Assembly: GCF_964355755.1 (NCBI RefSeq)
Contig: NC_092673.1
Span: forward strand, 14,232,948 to 14,296,947
Reading direction: 5' to 3'
Source: Antedon mediterranea
Lineage: Eukaryota; Animalia; Echinodermata
Length of the DNA: 64,000 nucleotides
Part shown: piece by piece, positions 27,693 through 58,681 of the stretch
Layout: each line of letters starts with the position of its first letter
Position numbering within the stretch: position 1 is the first letter of the stretch
The notes under the pieces: generated by a model
What the model was told of the DNA's origin: nothing
What the model saw: the letters and a program-made list of their open reading frames with translations, nothing else
Databases searched by the model: none
Program-made: the position numbers and the translations under genes

Positions 27693-30130
27693 ATGATATC
27701 TGAGAATTATTTTTGTCATCTCCCATTCCATGATTTTATTATAGATTCTGATATTATTAACCATAGTGATATATCTAACATTATTATAAACCCCCTTGCT
27801 CATACTGAATATGATAAATTTGATGAACATTCTGAGCCTCTTGCCAACCAATTAAATTCTAGAAATTCGACACTCGAGGATTGTATATACTATGACACTA
27901 ATCATTTTAATACCACTTTTAGAAATGTTTCAAATTCCCTAATTTCTCTCTTTCATGTTAACATTAGAAGCGTTACAAATAAAACTGATTCCCTTGAACA
28001 ATTTTTAAATTCAATTAATTTAAAATTTTCTATTATTGGTCTCTCTGAGACGTGGTTGAATGACACGTCACCTACTCCCCTCTTGCATAATTATTCATTT
28101 ATATCTAAAAATAGGCAATCTGGTAAAGGTGGTGGCGTAGCTTTTTTCGTAAAAAACGATCTTAATGTTAGAGACCGTCTTGATCTATCGATTTCTCAAC
28201 CATATGATTCCCTTTTTCTAGAAATAGTACATCCTAATAAAAAAAATACAATCGTTGGTGTAATTTACCGTCCTCCAGATGGTAATATTGATCATTTCTC
28301 CAAATCCTTCGATGAACTCTTAAATAAAATAAATTCTGAACATAAACCCTGTCATATCATGGGCGATATAAATATTGATATCATATAATATCAAAATCAT
28401 ATTCAAACTAATAATTATATTGATATGTTACTTTTTCGCTCATTTTATCCAACAATTTCAAAACCTACTCGAATCACACCGACTACCGCCACCTTGATTG
28501 ATCATTTTTACACAAATATTATTGATACAAAAATACATTCTGGTGTATTTATTTTTGATATATCCGACCACCTTCCTATCTTACATATAGTAGATGAAAA
28601 ATTATACCATACTGACACCGACAATGTACCATCTCGTATAATAGATATTGATGCTTTGTGTGGTGATTAAATATATTAAAAATAAATATAATGTATCAAA
28701 TAAAATGATAAAAGTATATACAAAAATTATAAAAATATGTACACTAAACTCTGTCGAACCGCCAAAAGAATGCATTATATATCAAAATTTCAAAATGTAA
28801 AATGTAACCTTAAAAAGACCTGGGCTATAATAAATTCTGTATTAAGACCAGAAAATCAAAACAATTTCCCATCCCTCATAAATAACGGTTTTGAAACAAT
28901 TACATCAACTAAAGAAATATGCGATTCATTTAATAAGTAGGCCTACTTTTCAACAGTTGGTTCAAATTTAAATAATTCTATGCCTGACCCTCATATTGAC
29001 CCAATCTCATATTTACCAAATCCAATTTCTCAATCCTTTTTTATAAATCCTGTTACAAAAGAAGAAATAATAATTATTGTCAACAATTTAAATCCAAATA
29101 AAGGATCTGGTGACGATAATATCACTTCACGTACAATCAAACAAATACTGCCGTACATAATTGACCACCTTACCTACTCTATAAACTGTTCATTCTCATC
29201 TGGTGTATTTCCAAATTTATTAAAAATAGCTAAAGTTTTCCCAATCTTTAAGAAAGGTGACAAGGGCCAAGTTAAAAATTACAGGCCTATCTCCCTTCTT
29301 AGTGCTTTTTCCAAGATCTTAGAAAAACTCATGCACCAGCGACTCTATGATTACCAAGTTACTAAATTCAACATTCTTTATACTCACCAATATGGCTTCC
29401 GTCATAACCATTCCACATCCCATGAAATTCTGGATCTTGTTAACAACATCACCTCATCTCTTAACAATAAACAATTTTTACTCTCTGTTTTTATAGACTT
29501 GTCAAAAGCTTTTGATGTCATTAATCATAAAATTCTTCTTGGTAAATTATTTAATTATGGCATTAGAGGAATTGCATTAAACTGGTTTGAAAGTTATTTA
29601 GTAAACCGTAAACAGTATCTTGCGTTAGGCTCATTTAAATCATCAGTGAAGGCTGTAAATTGCGGAGTGCCTCAAGGGTCGGTTTTAGGACCACTACTAT
29701 TTTTAATTTATGTAAATGATCTTTCTAGATCAAGTGACACTCTGAAAGTCATATCCTTTGCTGATGATACTACGATTTTGTTTTCTCATTCTGATATCAA
29801 TGTCTTATATAACACCGTCAACACTGAACTAAATAAAATGACTGACTGGTTCATCTCAAATAAGCTTATTGTTAATGTACAGAAAACTAATTACATTTTA
29901 TTTCGTACTCAACAAAGACAAATTGATTTCTCTAATCTTAATATTTACATTAACAATAATATTATTGAACGTAAACCCGAAGTACTATTCCTCGGAGTTT
30001 ATCTACATGAATACTTGAGATGGACCAGTCATCAAGCGTATGTATCTAAAAAGATATCTAAAGTAAATTGGCATCCTTTGTAAATTAAGACACTTTTTTC
30101 CACAACATATCTTACTCTTGTTATATAACA
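27693..30130 (+). pseudogene. CR1/L2-clade ORF2 (APE endonuclease plus RT), disrupted
   Basis: NIRS, GLSETWL, GGGVA, IYRPP, GDINID, SDHLP; RT motifs NYRPISLL, QYGFR, DLSKAFD, GVPQGSVLGPLLF, FADD. Contains stops and a deletion. Confidence 0.92.
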
Positions 30131-30453
30131 CCCTTAGGCGTCATGTCAAAATGTTTCAAAACGATAATTATGCGTGAAACGCGGTTCAGATTTCTTTGAC
30201 CGTTTAACGCGTTAAACGTCTTAATCAAGCTCATTAATTGTACTCATTAAATATTCAAAGCTTAGGACCGCCTACTATTACGTCGGTAAAAAGACGCGAT
30301 TAACGCGAACATCGCGGTTCAATGTACTGTAATACTATTTTGAAATCGATTTTGCGTCGAACACAACGATAAAAATGCGTTTTTAGGGTCAGGTCCTATG
30401 ACAACAAAGAAATCGGCTGATAATGTAGACCTATTCCCCGGTCTATACATATA

Positions 30454-31412
30454 TATGGAAAGCCAAACCCGCCAAAAATACATAATACATACCATCCACC
30501 AATAATTAATTCGTACAAAATTCAAACCATCCAATATTATCTCATGCAGTTCAATGAAAACTTAAACCATTCACCTAGTATCTACACCATCCAATATAAT
30601 GTGTGACCATCTATCACTAGCCCAAACGACAATACGCCGAACAAACTACCCATAACACAAACCATCTAAAGAATGTTGAGCCCAGGCAGCAATAATTGAA
30701 TTAATCTAACGTTAATACAAGTATATATTAGTCAACTCATTTATCAACATTTCATGTAGTTCATGAACATTTCAAACAAAGCATCTTAATTATAGTTCAT
30801 CGAATTATAATTCTAATACATTGCCTGTTTTATACACCGTTCGTCTGTTCAACAGTTGAAACAACTGTTTTGCACACGATACGCCCGTTCGTGAGTTCAA
30901 ACCATGATATTTGAAGCATCGACTTTCCAAACAGCGATTTTTCGCACCGAACGTATTTTCTTGAGTTAAAGTGGTTGCATTTCAATCACTTACTTTTGAT
31001 TGGCCAGTATTACACACCGTTCGCTTGTTCGTGATTTCAAACCATGATATTTGAAGCATCGACTTTCCAAACGGCGATTTTTCGCACCGAACGTATTTTC
31101 TTGAGTTAAAGTGGTTGCATTTCAATCACCTACTTTCGATTGGCCAGTATTACACACCGTTCGCTTGTTCGTGATTTAATGTGATAACATTTCATTCGAC
31201 AACTTTTCAAACGTTAGCTTTTGGCTCCGCTTACGTATATATCAGTTGATATACTATTTTTTAATTTTCATACTTTTTATACATCAGTTTTGTACATCAT
31301 TCGCATTTACGCATGTAAAGTGTAGATATTCCACTCGACAAGTTTTAAAACGGTAGTTTTTGTTTTATTGTTTAATTGTAACTGTTGGCGCCGATTTTAT
31401 ATTGGGGTGGGG
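30454..31412 (+). repeat. Left TIR (~960 bp) with an internal 140-bp tandem duplication (about 30887-31177)
   Basis: Reverse complement of about 42604-43575 with few differences. Confidence 0.95.
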
Positions 31413-31439
31413 GGGGGGGGAGGTGTTCGGTACTGAATG

Positions 31440-32916
31440 CATAGTTGCCATTTCTGGCATTATTATGCTTTTTGGCATTATTTAGAGGCCCACGGCATCT
31501 GGCATAATGCCGCGGCATTATTTAGCCGTTTTTAGCATAATCTGGCATAATTTTGTGTTTTTTGAACAACCAAAAAAATAATATACCACAGAACAAAAAT
31601 AAAATATTTTGTTAATCTTGCAATTTAATACATATTATCACCTTACAGTGTACACAATATCATATCGTACAAAACAGATCAGTTCGGGTTTTCCGTACAA
31701 TAGTTCTTCCATCCTTTTGTTTCGGACTTAAATAGATTCTTCGGATAGGAAGGCTGCTCGAAAACTACCGTGTGTGCGATATAGGCAGCACAACAAATCC
31801 GAAGAGGCTAGCTATTGGCCAATTATGTTGCTCTATTTCAGAGACCATGCAGGTTATTGGATCCCCAGATATAGAGACAATTGAACGAAAACATTATGAA
31901 AGGGGTTTTGTTGTTTCAGTTCATAATTATAAGTGGCCGCACCCCTACCCCAACCCTTGAAATGGCAATTTCCAGTAACTAATTAGAAGCTCTAATTTTA
32001 AAAAGAATTTCTTCTAGGAGAATTTGTTTTCCATATTTCAAATTATGTTCCATCCATTTGCATCGTCGTACCAACCCTATTTTTTCAAATGTTCTTCACC
32101 TCTCAGCCCCAGTAGTGACCATGAGGGCGAGGTAATTTTTATTTAAAATTAAGTGCCATTTCCGCCCATCGAGCAGCTCTATTTTTCCATTTTTTTTTAC
32201 CTCAGCCTCATGGAGACACTTAATATATATTTTTATTTTCTATTTTAAATTATAATTGCCATTTTCAAAACTATGATGGGCTAAGATCCTGGAGGTACTA
32301 ATAAATATATTTTTATTTCATATTTGAAATTAAGTGCCATCTCCGCCCATTGAGCAGCTCTATTTTTCCAAATTTTCTTACCTCAGCACCAGCCATGGTG
32401 GAGCTGAGGTCCTGGAGACACTTAATATATATTTTAATTTCCTATTTTAAATTATAATTGCCATTTTCTAATTATGGTGACGTGGGCTAAGATCCTTTCA
32501 TATTTGAAATTAAGTGCAAATATCGAGCAGCTCTCATATTCAGCTCAAAAATTCTAAATTTCCATGGCTGTAACAGGTTTTTTTTTGGGGGGGGGGGGGG
32601 TGGGGGGTGGGGGGGGGGGGGGAGAAGGGTTCGTGGGTTGGTGTTTGTGTCATTTGCAATTACCATTTTCGCACCCCAGATATTTTTAGAATTATTAGTT
32701 ATTACTCACAAAACTAAAAATACAATTTTTGAACGACAGGGATACAATTTAGGCCCTATTTTGTGTCAGTTGGGGTTTTACAAACGTTTATTAGACATAC
32801 AACCGTTGGTGGCACTGTTTAGGACCACATTTTGGGGATCTGGCATTATTTTTCCCAATCTGGCATTATTTGAGACAGGATACGGCATAATTTAAATTTT
32901 ATCGCTGGCAACGCTG
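31440..32916. mobile_element. Non-autonomous hAT-type element nested in the IS3EU
   Basis: TIRs CATAGTTGCCA / TGGCAACGCTG, perfect 8-bp TSD ACTGAATG (31432-31439, 32917-32924), subterminal GGCAT(A/T)AT motifs and internal ~180-bp repeats at 32146-32530. Confidence 0.85.
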
Positions 32917-33157
32917 ACTGAATGTGAACAGTACACATTTTTAAATATGGTACCTCTACATGTCCGGAAATTACACTCTCTCAAAAAAGGGGTTTTTTTT
33001 CCGTAGTGTGTAATATTAAATCAACCACAACCACAACCGTAAGATGAGAACATTTTAGGAACAATGGACATGTTATGCCCTGAAATTGTACTCATTAAAA
33101 ATATTCCAGCTAGAATAAAATGTATAGTCCCCTCTCATATTCCCAAAAGTCTTTAAC

Positions 33158-35963
33158 ATGGCGTATGTTCCTATTGCTATTGCTTTGCAAGAAATCTGTC
33201 AAACACTTGAACAGTATGTGAATGGTAACATTGATAGAAATCTATTAATGCCACTCCCAATGCGACTGGAGGTTATTATCGAAACGATAATCGGGCATGA
33301 AAATATCCGGTTAGAGGTAATCGATAATCTTGTAGCGAGTAAAAGAGCGATAGAAGAAGTCATTGGCCCAGGCCAGGTAGGAGACGAACATCCCACTACG
33401 GACTCTGCCATGATTCACACTGGCAGACCAGGACGGGCAAGATTTGTGATCGGGCGTAGTCAGCTGCAGTTCTTTGTGGGTGCGTATTATTTTTAGGCCT
33501 CCTAGGTTTTGGGCCTAGGCCTATGTATCATTATCTACTTTAATTATTTCTTGTCTTTGGTAAAGTGGCTACCATCGAAGTAAGTAATTCATTCATTAAA
33601 TTAAATTCGTGTTTCGGAAGCCATCTTCTTCTTGAAGAGAGTGGCAAACAGTCGTAACCAGCCGAGCCTTAAAAACAATTATTTTTTGTTTTTTACGCTC
33701 GGCTGATCATGGTTGTTTATCATCTTTGTAAGATAGTAGCACGAACATAGTGTGTTTAATACAAATTTAAAGTAGGCCTAACGACCTTTACTTTTATGTG
33801 AAACAAATTTTGTAATTTAAATATTAATATATTGCATGACAAAAGGTAGGTAGGTTGCATGATAGGTAGGCCTACTGTATTATTTTTTTTTAAATTATTA
33901 TGAGGCTCTTGCAATAATAAGCATGTAGAGTCTTTTTTCTCTCGAAAATATTACCTTACAGTACAGTACTTTGAATTATTTCTTAGAATTTTCTAGCCAA
34001 TATATTATCCAATTCCCATATAACAATTTAGTATTAATAATGAACAAAATTTGGTGTTTTTGTAAACCTAATATTTTACTTTCCGTTCAGTCTTCTCTCC
34101 ATAGTCAGTTATTTTCATTTACTTCGTAGACAACAACTTTACTGTTCAGGACATGAGTAAAATGTTTTCTGTAAGTAAAAGAACGATAGAAAGGAGGCTA
34201 CAAGAATACAACATGACAACAAGAAACTACACAGATATTTCTTCCGAGTTTCTAGACGCGCGTATTGGCATGATAACCATGAATTTTCCAAGATCAGGTA
34301 GGTATTTAAAATATACAGAATGGCTTGTTTTGTTACGCGACGGACTTTAGAATAGAAGAAGTACTCCTTCGACATGATAAGCATACAAAATAAGGATTAT
34401 TTTTTGAAAGGTTGGGTTAGATACGATGATCGCATCATTTATTGATGGGATGGGATTCTTTCTAAATGATAGAGAGTAGTACCACTGTTTGTAGCGGTAG
34501 CTATTTGCATAGTTTGCTTATTTGTTTTTCTTTATTCATCATTTCATCTTAACACTAGGACTTAAGTCAATTGAGGCTCATTTGATGAAAGACGGCATAC
34601 GAGTACGAAGAGAAGCATTGCGAGATTCTGTCAAAAGGGTTGATCCCGTTGGGCGTCATTTGCGGTCTCTGCGTTGCATACGCAGACGAGTTTATTCAGT
34701 GCCATCTCCGTTGGCTCTGTGGCACATAGACGGGAATCATAAACTAATAAAGTAGGTCTACACGTTTACGATATGTTATGATCAAAACAGATTCGTAGGC
34801 AACCCGACGCAGATATGAAAAATGATAATGTAAATGTAAGAAATTTACATTTTATGATACAATAACATAAAAGTATTTTCAGTTTCCTTTATAATTGTCG
34901 TATGTTTGATTCTACAGATGGAGGTGTGTGATTCATGGAGGTATTGATGGTTATAGTAGAGCGATAGTGTACCTAAAACTCAGTACAAATAACAGGGCAT
35001 GCACGGTTCTAACTTGTTTCCAGGAAGCTGTCAGAAAATGGGGATTGCCGTCGAGGGTGAGAGCGGACAAGGGGATCGAAAATGTTGATGTGGCTCGCTT
35101 AATGTTGAACCACCCTTCTAGAGGACCAGGCAGAGGTAGTTTTATTACTGGAAAAAGTGTTCATAACAGCAGGATTGAAAGATTGTGGAGAGATGTATTT
35201 GAGGCTGTTATATGTTCCTGGCGCACATTCTTTAGCAGTTTGGAAACCATGGGTTGTTTGGACCCAGATAACGAGGCGCATATTTTTATTTTACATTTCA
35301 TTTATGTACCCATTATTAATAGTATGTTGATGGATTTCCAACTGATGTGGAACAACCACAAACTGCGGACCGAGCACAACAAAACCCCAAATCAATTGTT
35401 CATAATGGGTATACAAAATATTGCATCCGATGCAAGCATCATAGCGTCTGAGTACTTTGAAGCCATACCAGAGGTAACGTGGAGTTGTATAAATTAAAGT
35501 AATAAATAAAACCTTCATTTTATACGGTATTCTTGGATTTAGAATGTAAGGCGAACGGATGTTCGTATAATTTGTTTGTCGTAACAACTACGTTATTATA
35601 AACCTGTAACAAAAACTGTTTTAAAAATAGTCTCCCCGACACACACATTATACGTGAGAAACTACTTGTATAGTTAGCCGTTACCGTACACATTTTAATT
35701 TTACCGTGTCTTGTATGATCTACCTAATCTTCTTTCATTATTTTGGCTTATTGTAGGAAAGTGTTCAGCAGTATGGTATAGATCCAAACTCACCCCTTCC
35801 AGAAGAAAATGATGGTATAGTTGTCCCTGACACTGCCTGTCCAATGAATGATGAACAACTCTCTTTATTTAAGGATGAAATAGACAATGCGCTAAATAAT
35901 GCAGTTGATATTTGGGATGCAACTCCTTATTTACGAGGCTTAGATATTGTTTCTGAATTTTGA
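33158..35963 (+). CDS. IS3EU DDE transposase (integrase core), 5 exons, ~481 aa
   Basis: Exons 33158-33479, 34130-34297, 34559-34751, 34918-35473 and 35757-35963 join with GT-AG sites in phase. HTH-like [13 protein letters not shown]; catalytic [17 protein letters not shown] and SRIERLW. Confidence 0.9.
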
Positions 35964-36767
35964 TGAGTAATAATGACTATTGTGAATGTTTAAAATAGAA
36001 AATTATCATAATGCATATATTAATAATTTGGTTGGCATTTACACTTTAGTATTGGAAATCAGGCTGTGTGAATATCGATTGTTTTGAAAAACAACTTATT
36101 CTCAAATGAATGTTAATGTTTTTATTAGTTAATTATATTAGGCCTAAAAATATCTGTGTAGATTGGGGATAGAGAGAGAGAGAGCATGTTGCACAATTTT
36201 ACTGATTGGTGTATTTAATGACTGCCTTAATTGTTAATTAACAACAAGTTTCTTTAATTGTTAAAGAAAAACGTTTATTGCCATTAAATTGAAAAGGTTA
36301 TTATATGTCCTAAAATCAATACCGTAGTCAACATATGATTTGCTTTAACATTTTTTCTACTGATGTGTAAACTAAATATGTTTGTTGAAAATAATGTTGT
36401 ACTTAATGTTTCAAGAACTGCCGACACTAAAATGTTTAGAATCAAATATTATATTTCATTTATTTAGATCTACCCTGTACAGGGGGTTTAAGAACTGGTA
36501 TGCCTAATGTTTAAAACGGAAATAATATGAAAACGTATTAGCTCATAACAACCCTTTCAACCATCGCTCATCTTCTTCTGTCATATATCTTTCCGTTATG
36601 TAAATACAAATTACCACCACTCTTTCTCAACGGTCACCTCCTCTATCCACTCTCCATGTCCTAAATTGAAGCATTATGGATTTTGCTCTGTGATTGAACC
36701 AACCCATATCTACAGTAGAAAACTTTATTTAAAGTATGTCACTTGCTTTGTTCTGACCCACTTAGGT

Positions 36768-39700
36768 CTACACATTACCAAAAAACTGTTGAGAAAATGC
36801 CAAATCATACATATTGAACAGTGTGTCTTTTGGCGGCAGACTGCATGTTAAACCTGGCCGTGGAAGTTGCATACTGTTAATACACGTGTTGGCAGACGGG
36901 AGAAAAGAACCTGCTGTTTCTGTAAATACTATTTGTGGATGGAGAACAAAACCCAACACTGGTTCTTCATCCGTTCCGGTCACAAACTGCAACAGATGAC
37001 CAAGCGTCAGGTGACCTCTTCTACCACCTATGAAAAAGAGAGGTAAAAGTCAAAACAAATCAAGTCATAACAAAACCCTTTTAGCCATCGCATCAGTAAG
37101 TGACTTGGCTTAAATGCTTTGAATAGTTTTAACACTGCATGTTCTGATATGAATTAAAAGTAATGAGGTTTAAGAAAATTTGAAAAATGTCGGAGTAAAG
37201 CGAATTTATTTTGGTATGTTACGGTTATTGCTCTTTTTTGCCATTTTAGACACTGTTATTATATGGTTTGCGACGGCAACAACAAATACTTCACTTGTAT
37301 AGCGGACACATCCACTACAAGTGTGCTCAATGCAATATTCCTTTATTGTTTGTTTATTGTTTTCCACACATAATAAACTTAAAGTTAAATTGTACTAAAC
37401 AAAAAGTGACTTCAGAAATACACATAAATAAAAAAGGGTAAGTGTGTGGAAGCCAAAATAAGCTTGAGAACTTTAGGGCATGGCCACCGGTTAAAATAAG
37501 GGTTTAAACAAATAATGGATTGCATTATGCTACAGTAGGGCAGAAAAAGGAAAATATACGAACAGACAGTCTGTGTTTTTCTATAACTTATAACTTACTA
37601 GCAACCTCTCTGACGTAGTCCAGAAATTGGGCATATACAGAACTTTCAAATATCTTAGTGTTTGAGCCATCGCTGCCTTTAAAAGATGGCTTCAACAATT
37701 CTTTCATCTTTTTTACAGATAATAGTGCTGCAGGGCTGGGTCGAAAAAGATGAACAAATGTTGGTATGTGACAACAAAGCTATAGAAAATAATTAGATAA
37801 AATGGTAGACAAGTGAATTGAATTTACAATTTTCAGTTGATCATTGAACGCATTACATTATTGTTTCAAGCAGAGATGAAGCATTATAGTGATTGGATCT
37901 GACGTATGCATATCATTGTGCATTGTGTTTTAGTTACTTATTTAAAGATATGGATCAGAAGCTTAAACTGGCAGTAACTGGTTTTGCGCTCTGTATATGT
38001 ATATTGTAGCAGTACTGTACGACATACCTGATATATCCCCAACTTTGCGAGTCCCTTTCTTAAATTGGTTATGCACTCAGAAGGAGCACTGCTGTTGACG
38101 AGTTCGTCGATAAGGTCACTGTGCATGAATTGTGGCAATTTGCCATTCTGGACGATACTCATAGCTGTTAAAAGATAACCATTTTTAAATACATTAAATC
38201 ATTATAACAGTACCGTACTAGTAAAAAGAAACAAAATAAAACATACGGTATAAGGCTATTAGGAACCAATTTGGTGAAAACAATTGTTGCATTTACACGC
38301 CACGTCACACGTCAAGGAACCTCAAATAGCACCGTGAATCGCGTGATTTTATTGTAAGTAGACATTGAAAACCTACCCATTATTATGCCGATGTAGTAAT
38401 ATTCCTCGGGAACGTGTTCTTTCATACCGTTATCAAAATAACCATCTTTTATTGCTCTTAAAGCCAACACAAAAAATTCTTTCCTCGGGCCGCCATAATC
38501 GGCTGCTCTCTGTGTGTAAGATATGAAATTACTGTATAGCAACACGGTTAACATCTCATTTTAACTAAAATGCTTTGAATATATTCGATTAGTTTTTACA
38601 AATTCAATTGTTTTTTTTTATTATCATTGTATTTCAAAAGGTTAATTTTATTTATTACAATAAAAATGTATTTAATATACCTCATCATAGAATTGCACTT
38701 CCAGTGTTTTGCGGTAGTCGGCCATATCCCTAATTTCCGAAAAAGCAGTTGCAAGCACATCTTCTCTATTAATCATAATAAAATTTGTTTCCCCTTCGAT
38801 TACCTCTGCTTCATCTTCTATCTCTAGTGGTCTTCCTGAAACAATAGCTTTTTGGTAATAACGTAGCACTTCTACAGGATTCCCATTAATGTTGTGGGTA
38901 TTGCAGTAATTCACGGTATCTTTGACAATTGTTTCAATAGTAGTAAGAGCAGGTTCTCGTTCGTTACGTTCTGGTTCGTTAACAAACTAAAAATAACAAT
39001 TATTTTTGTAAATGATGATACTCATCAAAACCGAAAGCTATAGTACATACTCTTGCAATAATACATAACTTCTATTATAACATAGCTAGGTAGCTTATCT
39101 TTTTCACTGAAATCGCACTATGTTTAGTTTTTTAGTTCTAAAAGTTGTTTATATAATTATATTTAAATAATGAACTAGGAACTAGCTTCACAGACATTGA
39201 ATGAGTAGTGCCTACGTACAATGTTTTCAACAATTTCTAAGTCTAAGTTCTGTTCTGTTCTGTTCTGTTCTAAGTTCTCGGAGGCCGGTATTGGTTCGGT
39301 GGCCGGTATTGTTTCGGTGGCCGGTACTTCATGTAGTCCCGGTTCCAGGTCACTGTCTGAACTTGAATCTTCGTTCTGGGGTTCAATAAGAGAAGATAAT
39401 GTACAGTAATATTGCGTGGTCGAGTGAAAAAAAAGTTGTTAGCCTAAATTATGATAGAAATATTCAAATTAAGCATTTTGTTATGTTAAAAATGTATTAT
39501 ACAAATCAAATAAAAAAAGGAGAATATTGATAATATCTGAAAACCGGTAATTACCGGCAAGTCCGTATCGGGAAAATTGATTTTCAATTCTCGTTTCTGA
39601 AAACTGAAACTGATTACCAATACTACTTTCTTCTCTTTCACAGGTAATTACCATGCAATATTTGATGTGCACTTTCATGTTCTTCATGGAAATGTTGGCC

Positions 39701-41234
39701 CTACAATTTAAACATTTTTCTCGGGCTTCCACTAATGGTATTTCTGCCTCCGGTATATCCCGCTGCAATGGGCGAATGTATAATTTTCCAGAACCAAATG
39801 TTCTAAGGTCTTGAACTTTACATGGCCCGTAATGGACAACAATCAGTTTTTTGCGATCACCTGTTGTTATCTCAAACCCTCCGCAATTTGCAAGCAACGG
39901 AAATGTTCTACAAAAACAAATTAAAAATAAATATGTAGAATTTTGTTCTCATTTGCAAACTGTCATAAGCATCATCATCATAGTTGATTATTTTCTCTTT
40001 AACAAACAGTATTTTGGCAAAATCACCACAGAAAACATTTCGATGTGAAAACATTAGAAAAATTATTTTACTTAAATACCAGGTTGCAAAAATCGTCTTG
40101 ATTGCCTTCCGCTGGAAACACAATTTTCTTCTCGCCATAGCCGTTATCTTTCAGTTTTCGACGTTGGGCTACAGTAGGAACAGTTTCCATTTTGTGTTCC
40201 ATGAGGCATACTAAAAATCTTGTCAATGTTCTTCCTAAAAAAGGATAAAATATCTTATAAAAACCATCTTTTATTAATAATCATTTCGGTCAATTAAGAA
40301 GATAAGACCTCCTTGTATTATTATTAGGCATGTTTTTTGGTTAAATAGCAAATTTTGTTACATGGGCTAATTGTTGGAGGTTAGCAAATATACAGATATG
40401 TTAGGAAATACATAACATCGTTATTCTTTTTATTATATGTTTAATAAAACTGTTAACATTTCAACTTTATATAAAAAACATACACCAATAAACCTGATTG
40501 GCAGTATTATCCGAACTCAACTATAACATGACGTAATAACTGTACCGACCTAAATACATTACACACGACAGCTTCTAAACTCTCATTGTGAAAATACAAT
40601 TAAAATTGATGCGATAAAACAATTAGCATCGTACCTTTTCCAGATGGTTTACTACTGGTACTGTTGTTGCTATGACCCCTGTTATATGGGGTTTGTCTCT
40701 GAAATAATATTATATGTACACAGTGATAAAAACTCGTTCAAAATGTTAATTTTACTTGTAATACAAAAAATATATGATGTTTTACTGAACGGCCAGGTAA
40801 GTCTCCAACAAAATTAATAAAAATGTGATGGACAACATGTTAAAATGTGGCACCATTGTATTGAAAATTATTTAAACTGGATTGGTACAGGCGCGGAGCC
40901 ACTTAATAAGCTATCTATCGGTACAATAGTAAACGATTCGGGTGCCAAGAAGAAGGGGGTTTAGTAACATGATGCAACTTACATAATTTCGATTGAACAG
41001 TCGTCTGTGTTCACTCGCAATACTTTGGTCTCTGCTAGGCGTACTGCTGGTGCTAGCACTGGAACTCAACGTAGATCTACTACTAGGCCTACTAGTACTA
41101 GCAGCATGACTAGTGGTTGTAGTAGTACTAAGCTCACTACTACTATTGGAAATGGTAGCAGACGAAGGAGTGTTTGTGATAGAATTTGCTAACCCCTGCA
41201 GCACCTGCAAAACACTACGTAAATCATCTGACAT
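36768..41234 (-). CDS. HECT-domain E3 ubiquitin ligase (G2E3-like HECT), 10 exons, ~635 aa
   Basis: Exons 41234-40983, 40698-40635, 40234-40072, 39907-39652, 39375-39220, 38986-38681, 38509-38377, 38164-38028, 37779-37599 and 37027-36768 splice in phase without stops. Motifs LEVQFYDE-RAADYGGPRKEFF, LLQFVTG, catalytic LPSANTC and a terminal FFGNV. Confidence 0.88.
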
Positions 41235-42603
41235 ACTGGATGATACCTGAAACGAATGAGTCCATACAACTTGTATTTACACTTTTTCACAATTTCACGT
41301 TAATTTATCACATTTTAAGTTTATATACTAGAAAATCAATATTATTCCTAGAGCCTAGTAGGCCTATATGGTTTAGAGCTATTTGGCAAAATAAAAAATA
41401 ATTGTTCAGTGGTAGGCTTCTGTACTATTATTATTATTAATAAATACAACCATTGATTAAAATATCGGTCTACGCACAATCGGAGGTTTATATATAATTT
41501 AATATAAGTATGTGTAATAATATTATATTATAGGCCTAGCTAGGGCCTGGCCTAGCTGGATAATTCCTATAATTAGTAATTTCAGCTACAAAATCCAGGT
41601 TCCAATCCTGGTCACCACTCATGGCACTAATTGTAGCTTTTTATAAAATAATGATAATAATTCCAATATTAATAATTATTAGGCCTATGCCTAGTATTAG
41701 TATTGTAAGTAGGCCTAGGGCCTAGGCTGGGCCTATATCATGCCTAGCCTGCTAGGCCTATCTAGTCTATACAGAAAAGTATAACAATAACTTAAACCAT
41801 CATCAATTTCACCTACAAAATCGATAAAACACAGAATTTAAAATAATAATAATAATAAAACAGGAAAACACTATTAAACATTATTATATTTATTTATCTA
41901 CCTATCATCAGTATACGTACGGTACGTACCTTTTTGGTCTTCCTGAGCTGAATCAATTCAATCAGCATCAATGTGTGAAAAATGACGAACTACGCAGTTG
42001 AATAGCCCCCCATCCATAACAGCGTTGGGTTATTTAATGCATGATGAATAACAAATAATTATGATTTAATAACAAATACACATGTTTTTAATTAATCCAT
42101 GATAAATATTCGTAAAATATGTTTATTCGGATATTTATTAATTACGTCTCCACTATAGTCTATAAAACATAATGAATGTCATTATTTCAAAAAAAATAGG
42201 CCTACCCCGTAAACAAATGGAAGCTTCTCAACAACAGTTAATTTATGCATCATATAGAGAGCACAGAGCAGAAAATGGCTCTAGGCCGGCCTCATCCTAG
42301 CAGCCGCCGCACAGGGGGAGAGAGAAGCACAACACCAGCTCTCTCTCTCTCCCCTGTCTCTCCCCCACAGGCGGGTGAGGTGGGTGTTACCCCGGGCCTA
42401 GTTGTGGGGCGTAAAATTGTAACAGGCCCACAAGCTAAATTATATTATTTCATTCTGGTTTTTTTTTCATTATTTAAGTTTGTGATAATGTGTGTAACCA
42501 GGGAGATGTAAAATAAATTTATAAATTAGTTTACATCTCCCTGACCTGTGTGTGTAACGTAGGCCTAAGTAAGTGTCATACAGTCGTATTAGTTGACATT
42601 CAC

Positions 42604-43575
42604 CCCCCGCCCCTCAATATTAAATCGGCGCCAACAGTTACAATTTAACAATAAAACAATAAATGTGCGAACAACTACCGTTTAAAACTTGTCGAGTGGA
42701 ATATCTACACTTTACATGCGTAAATGCGAATGATGTACAAAACTGACTATGGAAAGTATGAAAATTAAAAATTAGTATATCAACTGATATATACGTAAGC
42801 GGAGCCAAAAGCTAACGTTTGAAAAGTTGTCGAATGAAATGTTATCACATTAAATCACGAACAAGCGAACGGTGTGTAATACTGGCCAATCGAAAGTAGG
42901 TGATTGAAATGCAACCACTTTAACTCAAGAAAATACGTTCGGTGCGAAAAATCGCCGTTTGGAAAGTCGATGCTTCAAATATCATGGTTTGAAATCACGA
43001 ACAAGCGAACGGTGTGTAATACTGGCCAATCAAAAGTAAGTGATTGAAATGCAACCACTTTAACTCAAGAAAATACGTTCGGTGCGAAAAATCGCTGTTT
43101 GGAAAGTCGATGCTTCAAATATCATGGTTTGAACTCACGAACGGGCGTATCGTGTGCAAAACAGTTGTTTCAACTGTTGAACAGACGAACGGTGTATAAA
43201 ACAGGCAATGAATTAGAATTATAATTCGATGAACTATAATTAAGATGCTTTGTTTGAAATGTTCATGAACTACATGAAATGTTGATAAATGAGTTGACTA
43301 ATATATACTTGTATTAACGTTAGATTAATTCAATTATTGCTGCCTGGGCTCAACATTCTTTAGATGGTTTGTGTTATGGGTAGTTTGTTCGGCGTATTGT
43401 CGTTTGGGCTAGTGGTAGATGGTCACACATTATATTGGATGGTGTAGATACTAGGTGAATGGTTTAAGTTTTCATTGAACTGCATGAGATAATATTGGAT
43501 GGTTTAAATTTTGTACGAATTAATTATTGGTGGATGGTATGTATTATGTATTTTTGGCGGGTTTGGCTTTCCATA
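42604..43575 (-). repeat. Right TIR of the IS3EU element
   Basis: Inverted copy of 30454-31412, including the 140-bp duplication. Confidence 0.95.
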
Positions 43576-44599
43576 CATATACTGTCGTGTACGTATACAT
43601 ACATAAAATAAATGGGGAAACCCCGTAGGCTTCATTTAGCCTACACTGTACCGTATACGGGTTTTTTTGTATAGCTGAATATAATACTAAATACTTGATT
43701 TGAATGTTTAGGAAGATTTAGTATTTTAGTTCTTTGAAATGTATGCATTGTTTATATGTTAAGTGTGTCTTTATTTTATGATTATCATCATAAAATACTT
43801 CATTAATTTATATCATCAATTCAGTCAATGTCACATGCTTGTGCGCATATTAAGAAACGACATTGTTTTGGCCATGTGCTCCAACGATCCAAAGGATCGG
43901 CAGAGGACCGTTTCCTTAAACGTTCTTCCACCCTATGCATATTGTGTACACGTGCTCTGCCGTGGATACAAAGGACTGTTTTGTTTTACGCGCATACCTA
44001 GCAATAACAGGCTCTTTCTTTAAATGTTCTTCCACCCTATGCATATTGTGTACATGTGCTCTGCTGTTTATGAAAATCAGATTTATACAAGATTTATTTA
44101 ATTATACTATACTATACTGAAGTTGTTTTTCAGTTATGACCATTATGAGAGTTTGATAAGTAGGGTGTTTCGTAGTTATTATATTTTAGAGAACAAAGCT
44201 AGAATAGTAATAGGCCTAATAAACAACAAATAAACTTGAAATGTTACTGGTAGGTCTATGCTATATAGGCTATTCATAATAAAACAATTGAAAAAACTAA
44301 AATCCACCAATGTTCCCCGTTTATTTTCCCAGGGTCAAAGTGGTCAAAATAAATACAATATTTACAATAAAGATATATATTCCTTCATATGGTAACTAAA
44401 ACATACTCCACGCACGGAGGACCCGAGATGTAATCCGTAATTTCGAATAACTTTTATAACTTAGACCTCCCAACTCATGGACGTACCCTAATACGGTTAC
44501 TGAAAATAAATAAGGTTAATGTTTAATAAAATTAAAACTTTGTTCTTTAGATTTTTTTAATATGATGATGGACGATCAGATTTTATTTATTTTATTCAC

Positions 44600-47126: not shown

Positions 47127-48280
47127 GTTCGCCGCAATGCAAGAATAGGTAAGTTTACTGGAAAAGCCAAACTATAGAGGGTGTCGGAATCAACCAAGCG
47201 TGAGATTTGAAAGTTTTCGCACAAAAGTTTGATTGCTCTAAACACAAAAAGACGTTAAAAATTGTGACAAATATTCATTCAGAATTTTGAGTAAAGCAGT
47301 ATTTTAATTTTTTAAATTATATTCTACAAGAATTTTTAAGTTTAAACATTTTTGACACAATATTTAAAATATTACAGCATTTCAAAGATAGCAATATGGG
47401 AATTTCTGAAGTAAAATGAGTCAACTAAAATGTTAAATTGTAATTAATCTGAAGTTTTCTCAGATATGACGAATATCATATCATCTTATTTAGATAACAA
47501 TGCATTTAATTTTAATTAAAACTATAGAGAGCAACAATTATTTTACGAGATTAACATTTGCCTGAATTTTGGCTATTTTTGCACAGCAGAATAGACGTTC
47601 CTATGTTAAAGCATAGGCGCGCACCTGATAAGGCTATAAATACAGTATTAGATGAGTGGAAATAGATGAAAAGTTGCAACAGTTTGTTTTTTTGATGAAT
47701 CATGTTCAGAATATAATAGGGAATAACATATCCAAAATCTACCTTCATCTGAAAACTATAAATGGTGTAATTTGCATAAATTCAAAATGGCTGCCATTCA
47801 ATCATTAAATGCTTATAAATCAGGTAATACAAAGCTAAACATGTTGATTTTAGGGTCTATACCTATGTTTTCAATACCAAAGAATCCATTTATGTCACTT
47901 TTATTTTTCCTAAAGTAGCCATTTTGAAATCCAATATGGCTGACATCCACAATTGTACCGTTTCATGCTTTTAAAGCATAACAAAATATTACTATTACTT
48001 AAAAAATAATACTGGTTATCATTAACATTACTTCTATTTTGATAAAATGAAGAATGTTCCAGAATAAAAAAAATAAAAATAACAATCCCATAATTCCAAG
48101 CAAAACAAAAGATCCTGATTGACTGAAAGTTTTCCCAGGAAAAATGAATGACATGAAGAAAGTACATACAGAATCTAGTATTTCTTAATACTAATTCATT
48201 CAAGTAAGTTTCAAGAGTTTCTGAATATCAATCAACAGTAGTTCTAAACATCAGTATTTATATAAAACCTAGGCCGTGTG

Positions 48281-48490
48281 TAGGCCTAGGTGGCATGAGC
48301 CTAAGTCAGTTAGGCCTAGGCAGCATAGCCTAAGTCAGTTAGGCCTAGGCAGCATAGCCTAGTCAGTTAGGCCTAGGCAGCATAGCCTAGTCAGTTAGGC
48401 CTAGGCAGCATAGCCTAAGTCAGTTAGGCCTAGGCAGCATAGCCTAAGTCAGTTAGGCCTAGGCGGCATGAGCCTAAGCAAGATAGGCCT
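48281..48490. repeat. Minisatellite, 28-30-bp unit x~7
   Basis: (taggcctaggcagcatagccta(a)gtcagt)n upstream of the Academ ORF. Confidence 0.9.
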
Positions 48491-48684
48491 AGTGATGGTT
48501 TAGGCATGGTCAGCTTAGGCCTATGTAGTTCAACTTGGGCTTAGACTAGCTTGAATATAATTTTAGAGCTAATGACCAAAAGAACCAAAGACCTTTCTTT
48601 ATCTTTTCTTATACAATAGTTTGCAAGAAAACAAATTATAAGGAAGGGAAAATAAGTATTTGAATTGTTTTAACTTACAGGACT

Positions 48685-51600
48685 ATGAGTAGGCCTATGC
48701 AAAACCAAGAAGACCATTCTGAGACAGATTTATGTCCATTATGTGATAAGAGTATGACTGATGATGATGGTAGAAGAACAGTAAACATTACTCAAAAAGC
48801 AGCAAGGACAGTAAATGAAGCTAGTAGTAAAGAAAAAGGAACATCATTGCAAGTAGTAGCCGGTCAGGTCCTCCACTCAGACTGCAGAAAAGCATTTACC
48901 AACAAGAGAAACATTGCTGTCGCTAAAAAAAGAAAGGCGGAAGAATTTATTGTTGAGACACCATCTTTGAGATCAAAGCAGTCAATATTCAATTTTTCTA
49001 GCCATTGTCTTTATTGTGAAAGTAAGGTAGTTGATGAAGATGGAAATCGTCTTGAAAATGTATACAGAGTAGCTTCTTGGAATTGTCAAGATTCTATTTT
49101 AAATTCCTGTAAGATCCGAGGAGATAAATGGGCAGATGATGTGCGATCGTGTTGTTTTTGCTCAAGACTTACCAGCCGTTGATGCTGTATATCATCAAGT
49201 TTGTAGCGTCAATTTCAGAACTGGCAGAAACATTCCTAACGAGTACGACACTAATTCTGGTGGAGACAAACAAACTCGCCCTGGGCGAAAAGCTGATACC
49301 ACTCGTGAACAGGCTTTTTTACTAGTACTAGAAGAGTTTTTGGAAAATGAGGAAGAGCAGACCACAATATCTGATCTAGTTGATAGAATGGCATGCTTGT
49401 GTTCAGAGCCATATAGCAATATCTACATGAAGGTAAAACTCTATGAATATTTTGGAGATTCCATGATGATTACTCAAGTTGGTAACCGTTCAAATATTAT
49501 TACAATTCGTAAATCAGCTGCAAAAATATTGAATGAATTTTATGTAAATCACAAACAAGAAGAAAATGAAGAGGTACGTAAGAAAAATATTTTAAGAGCT
49601 GCTGCAGCATTAATTAAAGCAGACATCGATCAGGTAAAGGATAGTCGAGACATATATCCTGATCTTCAAGGTCTCGGAAATATAGAACGTAACTTAGCAT
49701 ATCTTCCAATGTCACTCAGAATGTTTTTAAGTGATATTTTTAGAGGGAATAAAACTTCTAATGAAATCAAAATTGCAGCAATTGGACAGAGTATCATGCA
49801 GCAGACTAGACCAAGAAGTATTGTAGCACCTATCCCGTTTGGATTAACTATGCAGTTGCATTGGAAATGGGGCTCTAAAGAACTTATTGAAAATCTGAAC
49901 AACAAAGGATTTTGCTTGTCTTATGATGAGGCATGCCATTTCAAAGCATGTGCTGCTAATGATCAGAGCGACCCATTTTCTAATTTAGATGGTCACTTTT
50001 GTCATGTGATTGCAGACAATGTAGACCACAATATTGTAACACTAAATGGAAAGAATACTTACCATGGCATGGGTCTAATGTTTACAGCTACCCCAGAAAT
50101 AAGCTCCAAACGCCAAGTTCCTCGTAGTGCTTCTCGTAACATTGACAAACCAAAGAGCGTTGACATTAAAAGATTTCGAAAATTGGGAAAAGCTGGCGAT
50201 AACATGATATATAATGCATTACCAATGATTGACAAGGAAGATGACCGAGAGCACCTTGATACATTGTGGAACATAGCATTTCCGTATCGAACAGATAGAC
50301 CTAGTTGGTCTGGATTTATGCAGGCTGTGACGAGATGTGCTCATCCAGGAAAGTCTTCTTTTCATTTTCTGCCAATGGTAGACTTGGATCCCACAAATAT
50401 GAGCTGCGTGTATTCAACTCTATTATTCGTAAATAACCAATGCCTAAAACATGGAGTTACACCTGTTGTAACCTTTGACCAGCCACTTTGGTTTAAAGCA
50501 AAACAAATAACTACTCATGAAGAAGAGGTGAAAGGTATGATTCTAAATCTTGGAGGGTTTCATACACTTATGAGCTTCTTAGGCAGCATTGGCCACATCA
50601 TGAGGTCGAGTGGATTACGATCATTATTGGAACTAGTATATGCCGGCAACACAGTTACACACATGCTCATGGGAAAAGAATATGAGAGAGCAATACGAGG
50701 TAACTTCTTGATTGATGGAGCTCTCAATGGGCTTCTGGTAAAGAAGATGCTGAATGATAATGATGACCCGCAACTACTGGACTATGCTTTAGAAAAATTT
50801 GACGAAGTTTTAACATCAAGTGAAACAGTTGTATGCAAAACAGATAGCAAAATACAATCTATACAGGAGACGCTGCAGCAAACCAAATACTTGCAGAAAA
50901 GGCCAACTGGGCAGTTATGGATCCAGTACATGAAGATGATAGGTATCTTGCGATGTGCCTTGCGAGCACAGCGCACTGGTCAATTTATGCTCTATCTGAA
51001 GTCTCTACAGGACATGCTGCCATTTTTTGCTGCTAGTGGTCACAACAATTACGCAAAATCGGTTCATCTATTTTTGCAAGATATGTTTCAACTTGAAGAA
51101 AGTAACCCAGACGTGTACTCAAAGTTTATTTCTGGATTGTTTTTCGTGAGAAGAAGTGACCGCTTCTGGGCTGGCCTCCCAACAGATCTCATCATTGAAC
51201 AGGTTCTGATGAGATCATTAAAAAGCAAAGGAGGCTTAACACATGGGAGAGGAATGGACGAGACTCAACGGACAAGATGGCTCCTCTCAATGCCAGCATT
51301 TGCCGATATAAACAAAGAAATGGAAAGCATGTATCAAAGAACACATGAAAACTACAACAAGCACATGACACCTAGTAGACGTAAACAAGATAATCAAGAC
51401 ACTGAGTGCATCTTTGAATTCCTACAATGCCATGATCCATTTGATGACAATGAAAATTTGTATGATATTTCCACTGGTATATCGTCTTGTTCTTCAAATG
51501 TACATAAAGCTGAAGAAATTGGTAAAGCAATTATGAAGAAAATGGAAGGAGAAACGGTTTCAAATTATGTATTTCACAAGAAAGATCAGGTTAAAGTCAT

Positions 51601-53023
51601 GGGAAAAAAAGTGGTTGCTCAAGGGGAAGATATTCCAGTGGACCCCCAACTTCTGTTTCAGCGATTACTTGTTATAGCAAATAATACAGAATTAAATCTT
51701 GGTGAGGTGCTGAATTATGAACTTTCCATCTATCCACCATCTCTATTCAATAGCAAAGGAATGCTACATTCACCTAACAAGCCACAGCTTTCAGATGCAA
51801 TATCAAAACACTGTCAACCAACCTCACCTACTATATTAAATGAGGAAGATCATTGCTATGCTTTCGATGGAGGCTCATTGATTCAACGAATGGAATGGAA
51901 AAAAGGAGATACATATGATCAAATTATGGAAAAATATGTAGTCTATGTCTAACAGTTTTCTAATCCCGTTGTAATCTTTGATGGATACAACAACACATCC
52001 ACAAAGAGTATCACACATCAGATTCGATCAAAGGGTATTTCAGCACCATTAATAGCCCTTTCACCAAATCTACCATTTAAATTAGACAAGAAAACATTCC
52101 TTACAAACAACAACAACAAGCAAAATTTCATAAACATGTTATCAGATAAAATGTTGAAAAAAAATGGCATTCAAACAATTCATGCAGAAGGTGATGCAGA
52201 TGTTCTTATTGCAAAAACAGCCGTTGATTTAGCTGTATGTAGACCAACTTATGTAATAGCTGAGGACACAGACATCCTTGTTTTACTGTGTCATCGAATA
52301 AAATCGAACACTATTGGGTTGTTCATAAAATCTGGAAAAGCCAATTCAAAACATCCTTTATGGGACATAAAGGTTACTAGTGTTAAACTTGGAGATCAGT
52401 TTTGCAGGTTTTTGCCATTTCTTCACGCTCTTTGTGGATGTGATACCACCTCTCGTCTATACAGCATCGGGAAAGGGATAGTTTTAAAGAAAAAAGAGTT
52501 ACTTATGCAACATGGAGAACCATTTCTTTCAAGATATTCGAATCACGAAACAATTAAGAAAGCTGGTGAAAGAGCTCTTGTTCACTTGTATGGTGGATGT
52601 GAAGAAAGCATTAATGAACTGCGCCATAAGAAATTCAATGAAAAAGTTTTAAAAAGCATTCGTAGCATAGAGGTACAAAGCATTCCACCTACATCAGACT
52701 CTGCAAAATATCATTCGTACCGAGTTTATTATCAAACACAAGTGTGGATGGGGAACAACCACCTAAAGCCAGAAGAGTGGGGTTGGAAATTAAAGAATGG
52801 AAAGTTGATGCCTATTACTATGGATTCTAGCCCTGCACCTCATGAACTGTTGAAGGTAATAAGGTGCAAATGTAAGGGATATTGCGATACCTTACAATGT
52901 TCTTGCAAAAAAAATGGCCTCTACTGTACAAACTCTTGTGGCGAATGCCAGGATGGCTTCTGTACAAATATTTTGTTGGAAGACAATACTGATATTATTG
53001 GAGATAGTGATATCTATCTATAA
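48685..53023 (+). pseudogene. Academ transposase (~1440 aa reconstructed) with one frameshift and one nonsense codon
   Basis: Frameshift near 49145 and an in-frame TAA at 51950-51952 with an open frame continuing to 53023. Motifs ADNVD, TFDQPL, LGGFH, DLIIEQ, XPG/PIN-like DGG, FDGY, GDAD, EDTD, GCDTTS and a C-terminal CKCK..C....CSC.K....CT..C..C....C.N. Confidence 0.88.
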
Positions 53024-53324
53024 CAATGCAACAGACTTTGATCGAATTAGAAGAAAGTTTTGTACACCGACGGACGTTTATAAACTTTCAAATTTCCTTT
53101 ATTAAGTTGTCTTACAAATTCGATACAGCCACACATAACAAGTAAGAGTTCATGCAACATTCTAAATTTTAATTTGTTAATATGATTTATCTTTAGTGTC
53201 TGAGCTTAAAATAATATTATGCCAATGTGCCCAATATTGAATAATTGATAGTACAATATATTAATATGTAAAATTAATGTTCAAAAAAAGTTCAGAACCC
53301 AGATTGAATTATTTAGAATTTTTA

Positions 53325-53830
53325 TGATCATGTTTATATTGGTGTTTAATACATGCTTATTCTATTTAATGGTTTAATATATACTAATAGCATTTTTATA
53401 ATAAGGTATACTGAAATGACCTTTGACCTAAGGTCAAAGGACATATTAAATGTCATATTCGGAATGTTTAGGGTCATGTTTATATTGGTATTTAATACAT
53501 TCTTATACTAAATATTCGATGGTTTAATAGATCATTAGGGTTTTTTAATAAGGTATACTGAAATGACCTTTGACCGAAGGTCAAAGGACAAATTAAATGT
53601 CATATTCGGAATGTTTAGGGTTATGTTTATATTGGTATTTAATACATTCTTATACTAAATATTCGATGGTTTAATAGATAATTAGGGTTTTTTATAAGGT
53701 ATAATAAAATGACCTTTGACCGAGGGTCAAAGGTCAAATCAAATGTGCTATTCCGAATGTTTAGGGTCATGTTTATATTTGTGTTTAATACATTCTTATA
53801 CCAAATTCTTTATGGTTTAAGAGATAATTG
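53325..53830. repeat. Subterminal tandem repeat, ~147 bp x3.5, inside Academ
   Basis: atgacctttgacc..aggtcaaagg recurs at 53416, 53563 and 53709. Confidence 0.88.
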
Positions 53831-54252
53831 GGATCAAAGTTGTAAAATGGCAGCCATTTTGATTTTATGCAAATTAGCTAATTTATAATGGGCAGATCAG
53901 GGTAGATTTGGATATGATAATATCTACATATAGTTGAGCATGTTTCAGCAAAAAAACAAACTGTTGCAATTGAAAAGTCTATTTCCACTCATCTATATAC
54001 AGTACACATAAATACTAGATTAATATAAACTAGGGATACAATAACAGTTGATACCAGTTATTAAATTATTTTTATTTTCTAATATCTGTATTAATATATG
54101 TATTATTTTAATGAACAACACTTAAATACAGTATAAGTTATTACAATAGCATGTGTCTTGTATTTATCTTTTAAGTCAGAAATTATATTTTTATTATACA
54201 GTATTAATAAATATAATATTATATTATATCATGACACTTTATTTATTTCAGA

Positions 54253-57694: not shown

Positions 57695-58660
57695 GTGGAA
57701 ATCGCCAAAACTTCAATGTAAGTGGCATGGGCCATACCTAATTATCACGAAACTATCTCAGCAGGTGGTGTACCGGAGGGACCGAGAAAGAAACCAAAGG
57801 TCGTGCACGTGGACCAACTGAAGCCATATGAGGGTGAGGAGATCGCCTGTGGGACATCCCTCCCGGAAACGAGAGTTTGTTGGTTTGGGTCGCACAGGAA
57901 GCCGTTGCCGAAAGTAGCGAGACGCCAACAGTCCCGGAGGAAGTTTGACGGAGAAATCCAACAGCCCAAAATGCCTGAAGAAGGCCCCAGAGGAACCCTG
58001 TGATCGGGGAAATATGCCTGTACCTCCACAGACCCCCTAGAAGGAAGGTATCCCAGGAGGTGTAAGGCGGAGGCCTGCACGGTACGAACAATAAGCAGCT
58101 AGGTTCTCTTGCCGTTTATGTTTTACCTAATGTTGTTTTGTTTGTTTTTCTTTATTTTTTCATAAAGATGCGAGGAGGAGGTGACTACGAGTTTGACCGA
58201 TGTCCGAGAACATACCCCCATTCAAGCGCCCTACAGCGGCATCGAAAGCGAAGCCATGGCGACAGAAGAAGGGACCACGTCTGTGAGCGTTCCTCTGCAA
58301 CCTTTTCCAGGAGGGACGCCCTGATCCGCCACTGTAACCGGGTACACCGAAAGAGGGCCGCGACACCACCAAGCCAGACCAGGCCGTCATGTCACCCAGT
58401 GCCCAAGCCAGGGCGAGCGACGCATTGCAGGTGTCGCCTGGATCGGTCTCCTTGTTAGAAGTGCCAAATGTGGCGAGGAAGGAAACCATGGTGACCAATG
58501 AGCAGCAACTAACTGGAAAACCCTGGAACCTGTTACAGCTGCTCCGAGGAGGTAGAGACGATGACGGGGAAGGAGAAGAAGAACCATTCGAGATAGTCGA
58601 CCTGGAAAAGCTCCTAACAGGACATCATCTAAAGAATGGAGGATTTAGGAAGCCTAGGTA
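57695..58660 (+). mobile_element. Gypsy LTR-retrotransposon 3' fragment (integrase C-terminus plus downstream C2H2 zinc-finger ORF)
   Basis: SPKLQCKWHGPY...VVHVDQLKPY, followed by an ORF from 58168 with two degenerate C2H2 fingers. GC-rich relative to the flanks. Confidence 0.6.
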
Positions 58661-58681
58661 AAACGAAGAAATCCGCAACAC

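Follow-up and report, generated by a model that had tools for sequence, protein, structure and literature searches.

An IS3EU-type transposon of the echinoderm Antedon mediterranea pairs its transposase with a compact HECT-like protein predicted to be without the E2-binding subdomain of canonical HECTs

IS3EU and GingerRoot transposons have TA..TA ends, a 6-bp target-site duplication (TSD) and an integrase-like DDE core without the HHCC signature (PMC10045372, PMC6839031). Their termini have been defined as TAYGG..CCRTA (PMC10045372, PMC12730594), and the IS3EU superfamily has been described as largely unexplored (PMC11934779). In rust fungi, IS3EU elements carry alpha-kinase and TET/JBP genes, the alpha-kinase, a protein-modifying enzyme, being encoded opposite the transposase (PMC12730594), and Helitrons carry VTD/OTU deubiquitinases (PMC9741609); protein-modifying enzymes in transposons are therefore already known. 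Here we describe a transposon with the IS3EU features from Antedon mediterranea, located in a stretch of 64,000 nucleotides (hereafter the window; assembly GCF_964355755.1, contig NC_092673.1, positions 14,232,948 to 14,296,947 of the forward strand). Like the rust-fungal elements it has a gene for a predicted protein-modifying enzyme opposite the transposase, but the enzyme has a HECT fold. Like the Helitrons it has its own ubiquitin-system enzyme, whereas the Helitron enzyme belongs to a rolling-circle element, is fused to the main open reading frame, and removes ubiquitin, an activity that has been shown (PMC9741609). GingerRoot elements have terminal inverted repeats (TIRs) of 100–150 bp, whereas those of the present element are about 965 bp long and its second gene is a whole HECT-like gene under selection. 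No HECT is mentioned in the main text of the two papers on IS3EU and GingerRoot (PMC10045372, PMC6839031), although Repbase entries may annotate one.

In canonical HECT ligases, the small subdomain hosts the binding site for the ubiquitin-conjugating enzyme (E2), although a later passage of the same source loosely names the large subdomain (PMC3077247). In Rsp5, the E491/D495 loop and the Phe at position -4 are needed for ligation (PMC3738095). The protein encoded by the second gene resembles canonical HECTs (UBR5, NEDD4/Rsp5 and E6AP) in its bilobed fold, Cys, -4 Phe and loop Glu/Asp (PMC3077247, PMC3738095, PMC13196369). It differs from them in that the segment of the small subdomain has about 77 fewer residues, the region of the exosite hairpin is also shorter, and the N-terminal part consists of a helix or a SAM domain, then a beta-grasp fold and a C2HC finger. 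By description, it is also similar to the G2E3 and GL-Metazoa class IV HECTs, highly divergent metazoan domains grouped with UBR5; the survey of these domains, in its account of them, makes no link to transposons and ascribes the divergence to lost constraint (PMC3673628). UBR5 is also the best structural match of our model, and one relative, P0009, is annotated as G2E3-like. The HECT of human G2E3 has been called non-functional (PMC3673628), whereas the present family keeps the Cys. What is new here is the shortened HECT, missing the segment in which the E2-binding small subdomain lies. Neither a HECT without the E2 subdomain nor the pairing of IS3EU with HECT was found in the literature, Repbase and Kojima's 2019 review being outside the search; Repbase Reports, that review or bioRxiv supplements may already name the HECT. 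One conference report does speak of conserved proteins of host origin in DNA transposons.

The shortening is family-wide. The HECT domain is approximately 80–100 aa shorter than canonical ones, and in the 48 of 121 relatives that have both anchors, the loop Asp and the catalytic Cys are separated by a median of 195 aa, compared with 292 and 299 aa in two canonical comparators. Five anchors could be placed in 33 of the 121 relatives (the remainder being fragments or without one of the patterns), and in all 33 the segment from a 'QNG' turn to the next long helix has only 27–29 aa, against 104 and 106 in the comparators. The preceding segment is shorter as well (45–47 against 77 and 82 aa), unlike those that follow. 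The Pfam match agrees with this: residue 503 of P0006, where a helix lies only about 25 residues past the QNG turn, corresponds to position 157 of the PF00632 profile. A structure model built from 49 sequences has a mean predicted local distance difference test score (pLDDT) of 79, mostly above 90 in the HECT domain. It connects the helix at 459–467 to that at 473–483 through five residues with a pLDDT of 95–98, and matches the HECT fold of UBR5 (8p82_A) as a bilobed structure (Z 22.0, root-mean-square deviation (rmsd) 3.3, 276 residues aligned). In the N-lobe, 177 residues of the model span 266 of HACE1, and 178 of an earlier model span 262 of WWP2, so that this lobe is about 85–90 residues shorter than in either protein. 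HHalign aligned only 58 columns between the family and one canonical HECT. The protein is thus predicted, from the model and the segment lengths, to be without the canonical E2-binding small subdomain throughout the family. The earlier note on this DNA had proposed a HECT E3 ubiquitin ligase; a canonical one is not supported, because the segment of the E2-binding subdomain is missing across the family.

The residues of ligation are retained. Across the 49 sequences D403 is invariant, and E399 and C598 are conserved in at least 90%; E399/D403 and F632 were assigned to the ligation residues of Rsp5 by motif. The catalytic Cys and the C-terminal Phe that the earlier note saw kept are C598 and F632, the latter at -4. 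Judged from these residues, Cys598 likely still transfers ubiquitin.

A compact HECT domain (about residues 330–635) is the last part of a longer protein, preceded by an N-terminal helix (2–20), a ubiquitin-like domain (104–209), a C2HC finger (225–244) and an acidic linker. PF00632 is matched by the last exon at 6e-9, and the match above the cut-off covers the C-lobe only. Residues 104–209 form a beta-grasp fold in the model (best Z 7.0, rmsd 2.7, 79 residues aligned, with approximately 30 further beta-grasp rows). The finger that follows, C-x2-C-x11-H-x3-C, is one that we take to be UBZ-like from its pattern. An Atlas search with residues 100–250 gave unnamed clusters only. The ten exons that the earlier note had joined are in phase, with GT..AG introns and no stop, but the RefSeq isoforms have one more upstream coding exon, spliced to 41246 or a later acceptor, giving 11 exons and 652 aa in total (Table 1). 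Exon 5 contains short repeats with units of 5 and 18 nt, and contigs of the sequencing runs differ in length there; the acidic linker therefore varies between copies.

The transposase is organized as a helical N-terminal domain, a GRP motif with a helix-turn-helix, an rva_4 core and a C-terminal tail. As the earlier note had stated, its five exons join without a stop and the DDE triad is present, as D221/D278/E315; every intron is GT..AG. Exon 4 matches PF24764 (rva_4) with an E value of 1e-67, and the motifs agree one by one, by eye, with those of Repbase IS3EU-1_CVi. No CxxC, the sign of HHCC, was found before D221. The 6-bp TSD and the exact boundaries given by the earlier note hold, as do the long TIRs, which are 97.2% identical across 975 aligned columns and 99% identical in the outer 833-bp block. 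Inside the left TIR lies a 140-bp tandem repeat (30867–31146), mirrored in the other TIR, and 804 bp separate the stop codons of the two tail-to-tail genes. All four of the features tested (TA..TA termini, 6-bp TSD, TIRs and an integrase-like DDE core without HHCC) agree with IS3EU/GingerRoot, and on these four the element is, as claimed earlier, a cut-and-paste transposon of this type.

The pairing of the two genes recurs. A scan of metagenome contigs with the family profile gave 32 HECT loci, and in 12 of these an rva_4 transposase lies downstream, always on the opposite strand (10 strong matches and two with E values of about 1e-6). Where at least 1 kb of downstream sequence exists (17 loci), 11 have the transposase. 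The HECT-like protein has relatives in hemichordates, molluscs and cnidarians (118 word-indexed matches); a scan of viral contigs found nothing. The C-lobes measured in paired loci are about 50–60% identical between families, and 35 of the 36 C-lobes retain the catalytic Cys. For most pairs of relatives, the ratio of nonsynonymous to synonymous substitution (dN/dS) in the C-lobe exon is approximately 0.08–0.4; one pair reaches 0.85, and pairs that are nearly identical differ too little for the ratio to be informative. The earlier note had named a dN/dS of about 1 among copies as a refuting result, but young copies of a transposable element diverge neutrally, and the test is therefore not valid; selection is seen between families instead. 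The recurring pairing, the kept residues and this purifying selection bear out its proposal that the HECT is the element's own second gene. In three of the metagenome loci (L001, L002 and L004) long stretches of both genes are intron-free, which makes them convenient for cloning a natural pair.

These data also bear on the idea of a passive or recently captured host gene without a role in transposition (Pack-type cargo), which the capture of host gene fragments by GingerRoot elements (PMC6839031), the long-flank loci without a transposase and the replacement changes among recent copies would suit, but which we regard as very improbable and already largely refuted, since the gene is whole and not fragmentary, is found at the same place, facing the same way, in 12 loci with C-lobes so far diverged between families, and is under purifying selection between them.

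The element is young, multi-copy and recently mobile, as the earlier note had supposed. Copy number and flanks were taken from RefSeq records and contigs of sequencing runs, in which the depth of a contig cannot be read as copy number. In three of four runs, contigs run from 30453 straight into the flank right of 43581, with one CATATA, and other flanks were found at the 30454 terminus in 6, 10, 9 and 3 contigs of the four runs. The flanks are themselves repeated, and the empty-site contigs may therefore be paralogues rather than an allele; the TSD is still shown to be real. Two RefSeq proteins of A. mediterranea lie on different chromosomes: P0013, on a 41.4-Mb contig, shows no difference from the model in 635 residues, and P0014, on a 36.2-Mb contig, is identical to it apart from 17 additional N-terminal residues. 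P0015, on a 31.9-Mb contig, is a truncated third copy of 188 aa, and one of these three loci may be the element under study. The query words shared amounted to 88–86% in organism B (15% in one run), 45% in organism C and 9% in organism D. Among the 13 introns, four are skipped at the predicted borders, namely transposase introns 3 and 4 (contigs of run X8) and HECT introns 7 and 9 (run X10), and nine junctions were not seen. Neither run is recorded as RNA, X8, putatively an RNA run, also has unspliced contigs across transposase introns 1–2, and the intron-skipping contigs may come from an intron-less DNA copy. Since the family is young and its genes are identical and apparently spliced, the present copy is well suited for cloning the two proteins.

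Two kinds of N-terminal module are found in the paired proteins. Window-type transposases start with a helical domain, and the HECT-like protein of the window and several of its relatives start with one amphipathic helix. Docking of residues 1–80 of the transposase with residues 1–35 of the HECT-like protein gave a score of 0.42 (best control 0.02). In the calibration, which does not extend to peptides, scores of 0.60 or below comprise five of the 78 solved complexes and each of the four passing mismatches. At least 82% of the contacts are shared between runs, and the partner has a pLDDT of 59. The model thus suggests, weakly, that the N-terminal helix docks on the N-terminal domain of the transposase. 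A SAM profile made from the HECT family has matches in 26 of the 121 HECT proteins and, at six convergent loci, in the transposase frame. A word-indexed search for relatives of the transposase gave 579 matches, and no SAM domain was found in the nearest 120 of these window-type transposases, among which the window's own is not included. Two of the SAM-bearing IS3EU transposases, at L002:2036–3058 and L004:1717–3135 (- strand), have open frames with HLETNH as the first catalytic motif, in which Glu replaces the first Asp.

Our preferred reading, to which we give a probability of roughly 0.45, is that this is a mobile IS3EU element whose compact HECT, lacking the E2 subdomain, docks on its own transposase and transfers ubiquitin through Cys598. 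Beta-grasp domains and fingers of the kind present here are known binders of E2 and ubiquitin. With the canonical subdomain gone, E2~ubiquitin would instead be held by the ubiquitin-like domain together with the C2HC finger, Cys598 would take over the ubiquitin, and the N-terminal module would be the anchor that tethers the enzyme to the transposase. The ligase might then mark its own transposase, or proteins located at the transpososome, possibly for removal by p97 and the proteasome once the strands have been transferred, or as a check on overproduction. A wider reading, which we put forward only tentatively and consider somewhat unlikely, would make a two-component machine of animal IS3EU elements, with a new class of HECTs free of the E2 dock that is charged through its own ubiquitin-like domain and zinc finger and tethered to the transposase by matched, exchangeable N-terminal modules, so that ubiquitination is built into transposition. 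The matched modules in that joint and equally tentative reading would be helix with helical bundle in one clade and SAM with SAM in another.

Several observations weigh against the preferred reading. Co-divergence of HECT and transposase, for which the earlier note had suggested a co-phylogeny, was not found in a Mantel test on eight pairs with short regions (rho -0.04, p 0.56), nor on six dereplicated pairs (rho -0.36, p 0.80). Six of the 17 HECT loci with at least 1 kb downstream have no transposase; one of them, L030, matches the family weakly, as a canonical HECT would. Unless the interaction is already probable on other grounds, docking scores of this class are more often wrong than right, and the geometry, an amphipathic helix packed against a helical bundle, is generic. 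SAM on both partners of one contig was not seen among the loci: L019 has a SAM-HECT but its transposase is cut, and the loci with a SAM-transposase are without the start of the HECT. The C2HC pattern is found in 49 of 121 relatives (many of which are fragments) and is absent from some full-length ones. The canonical segment lengths come from two HERC-like proteins (loci L031 and L032) and PDB ranges, and the deletion was placed by segment lengths and fold matches rather than by residue-level superposition. Among the 25 differences listed for run X5, five lie in HECT exons (four replacement and one silent) and none in transposase exons, and selection is therefore not visible among recent HECT copies. 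Finally, an insertion upstream of the transposase gene (see below) may have silenced the transposase of the present copy.

The null result for co-divergence would also suit an active transposon ligase aimed at silencing or chromatin proteins of the host, with the N-terminal helix or SAM domain binding a host factor, an explanation that the earlier note had raised for silencing factors and that we consider unlikely. SAM domains are common in chromatin repressors, and the kept catalytic residues would serve such a ligase as well. A precedent for anti-silencing cargo exists in the TET/JBP genes of fungal IS3EU elements (PMC12730594). Against this, there is the docking onto the transposase, weak as it is, and the SAM domain is found on transposases of the SAM clade and on none of the nearest 120 window-type ones, a distribution that fits a partner within the element.

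Less likely still is that the protein is not a self-sufficient E3, and would receive ubiquitin from a thioester of a host E3 or E1, work in reverse, removing or trapping ubiquitin and so protecting the transposase, or handle a ubiquitin-like modifier. The absence of the E2-binding segment in all 33 measurable members, together with the kept Cys, would be in line with this, but we know of no HECT fold that works in reverse. Helitrons offer a parallel: they carry active deubiquitinases for which a role in protecting the proteins of transposition has been proposed (PMC9741609). The conservation of the ligation-loop Asp and the -4 Phe in the present family points to forward ligation (PMC3738095).

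If the E2 dock is truly missing, the family would represent a second way to load a HECT, in a catalytic module of about 300 residues that is small enough for direct testing. The second gene of IS3EU elements in animals would also have a definite candidate role. Many invertebrate gene models listed as 'uncharacterized' or 'G2E3-like' may be genes of transposable elements. The coordinates of the features are given in Table 1.

Table 1. Features of the IS3EU/GingerRoot-type element, in positions of the window
Feature	Position	Strand	Details
IS3EU/GingerRoot-type transposon	30454-43575		starts TATGG, ends CCATA
Left TSD	30448-30453	.	CATATA; single CATATA in empty-site contigs of runs X1, X5, X7
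Right TSD	43576-43581	.	CATATA
Left TIR	30454-31416	+	963 bp, first bases TATGG
Right TIR	42603-43575	-	973 bp, last bases CCATA
Nested non-coding insertion with its TSDs	31432-32924	.	insertion 31440-32916 (1477 bp); 8-bp TSD ACTGAATG at 31432-31439 / 32917-32924; hAT-like, sister copies without insertion
DDE transposase gene	33158-35963	+	481 aa; exons 33158-33479, 34130-34297, 34559-34751, 34918-35473, 35757-35963
HECT-like gene	36768-41234	-	635 aa; exons 41234-40983, 40698-40635, 40234-40072, 39907-39652, 39375-39220, 38986-38681, 38509-38377, 38164-38028, 37779-37599, 37027-36768
Optional upstream coding exon of HECT-like gene	41930-41968	-	13 aa; P0014, P0001; GT/AG checked

The earlier note had called the element intact-looking, and both genes are indeed open, but the nested insertion was overlooked. 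It lies between the left TIR and the transposase gene, 241 bp upstream of the ATG, and has imperfect 11-bp TIRs in which 9 of 11 terminal bases pair. From its 8-bp TSD, a length that is the rule for hAT, it appears to be a hAT-like non-autonomous element. In a contig of run X5 (depth 221.6) the left-TIR sequence is joined straight to 32917, skipping the insertion; sister copies are therefore about 11.6 kb long, and the present copy is not pristine.

It had also been claimed that every other coding element in the window is broken. The list of open reading frames fits this for a long interspersed nuclear element (LINE, 27.7–30.1 kb) and an interrupted frame at 49.1–53.0 kb, within the subset of elements inspected. 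The interrupted frame belongs to a second large DNA transposon (47674–53969), with imperfect inverted ends at 47674–47798 and 53846–53969, and frames of 949 and 356 aa separated by a stop at 51950–51952, with a frameshift near 49100. It has a weak match to DUF6589 and a Cys-rich C-terminus, and is presumably Academ-like. The LINE is a remnant (27693–30136) with endonuclease and reverse transcriptase; in contigs of the sequencing runs, another repeat interrupts it near 30136, and it was this repeat that later received the IS3EU element. A broken P-element-like transposase (PF21787, PF21788) lies at 58658–59930, and a fragment of an ISXO2/IS1595-like transposase (PF12762), which we assume to be of Merlin type, at 12862–13437.

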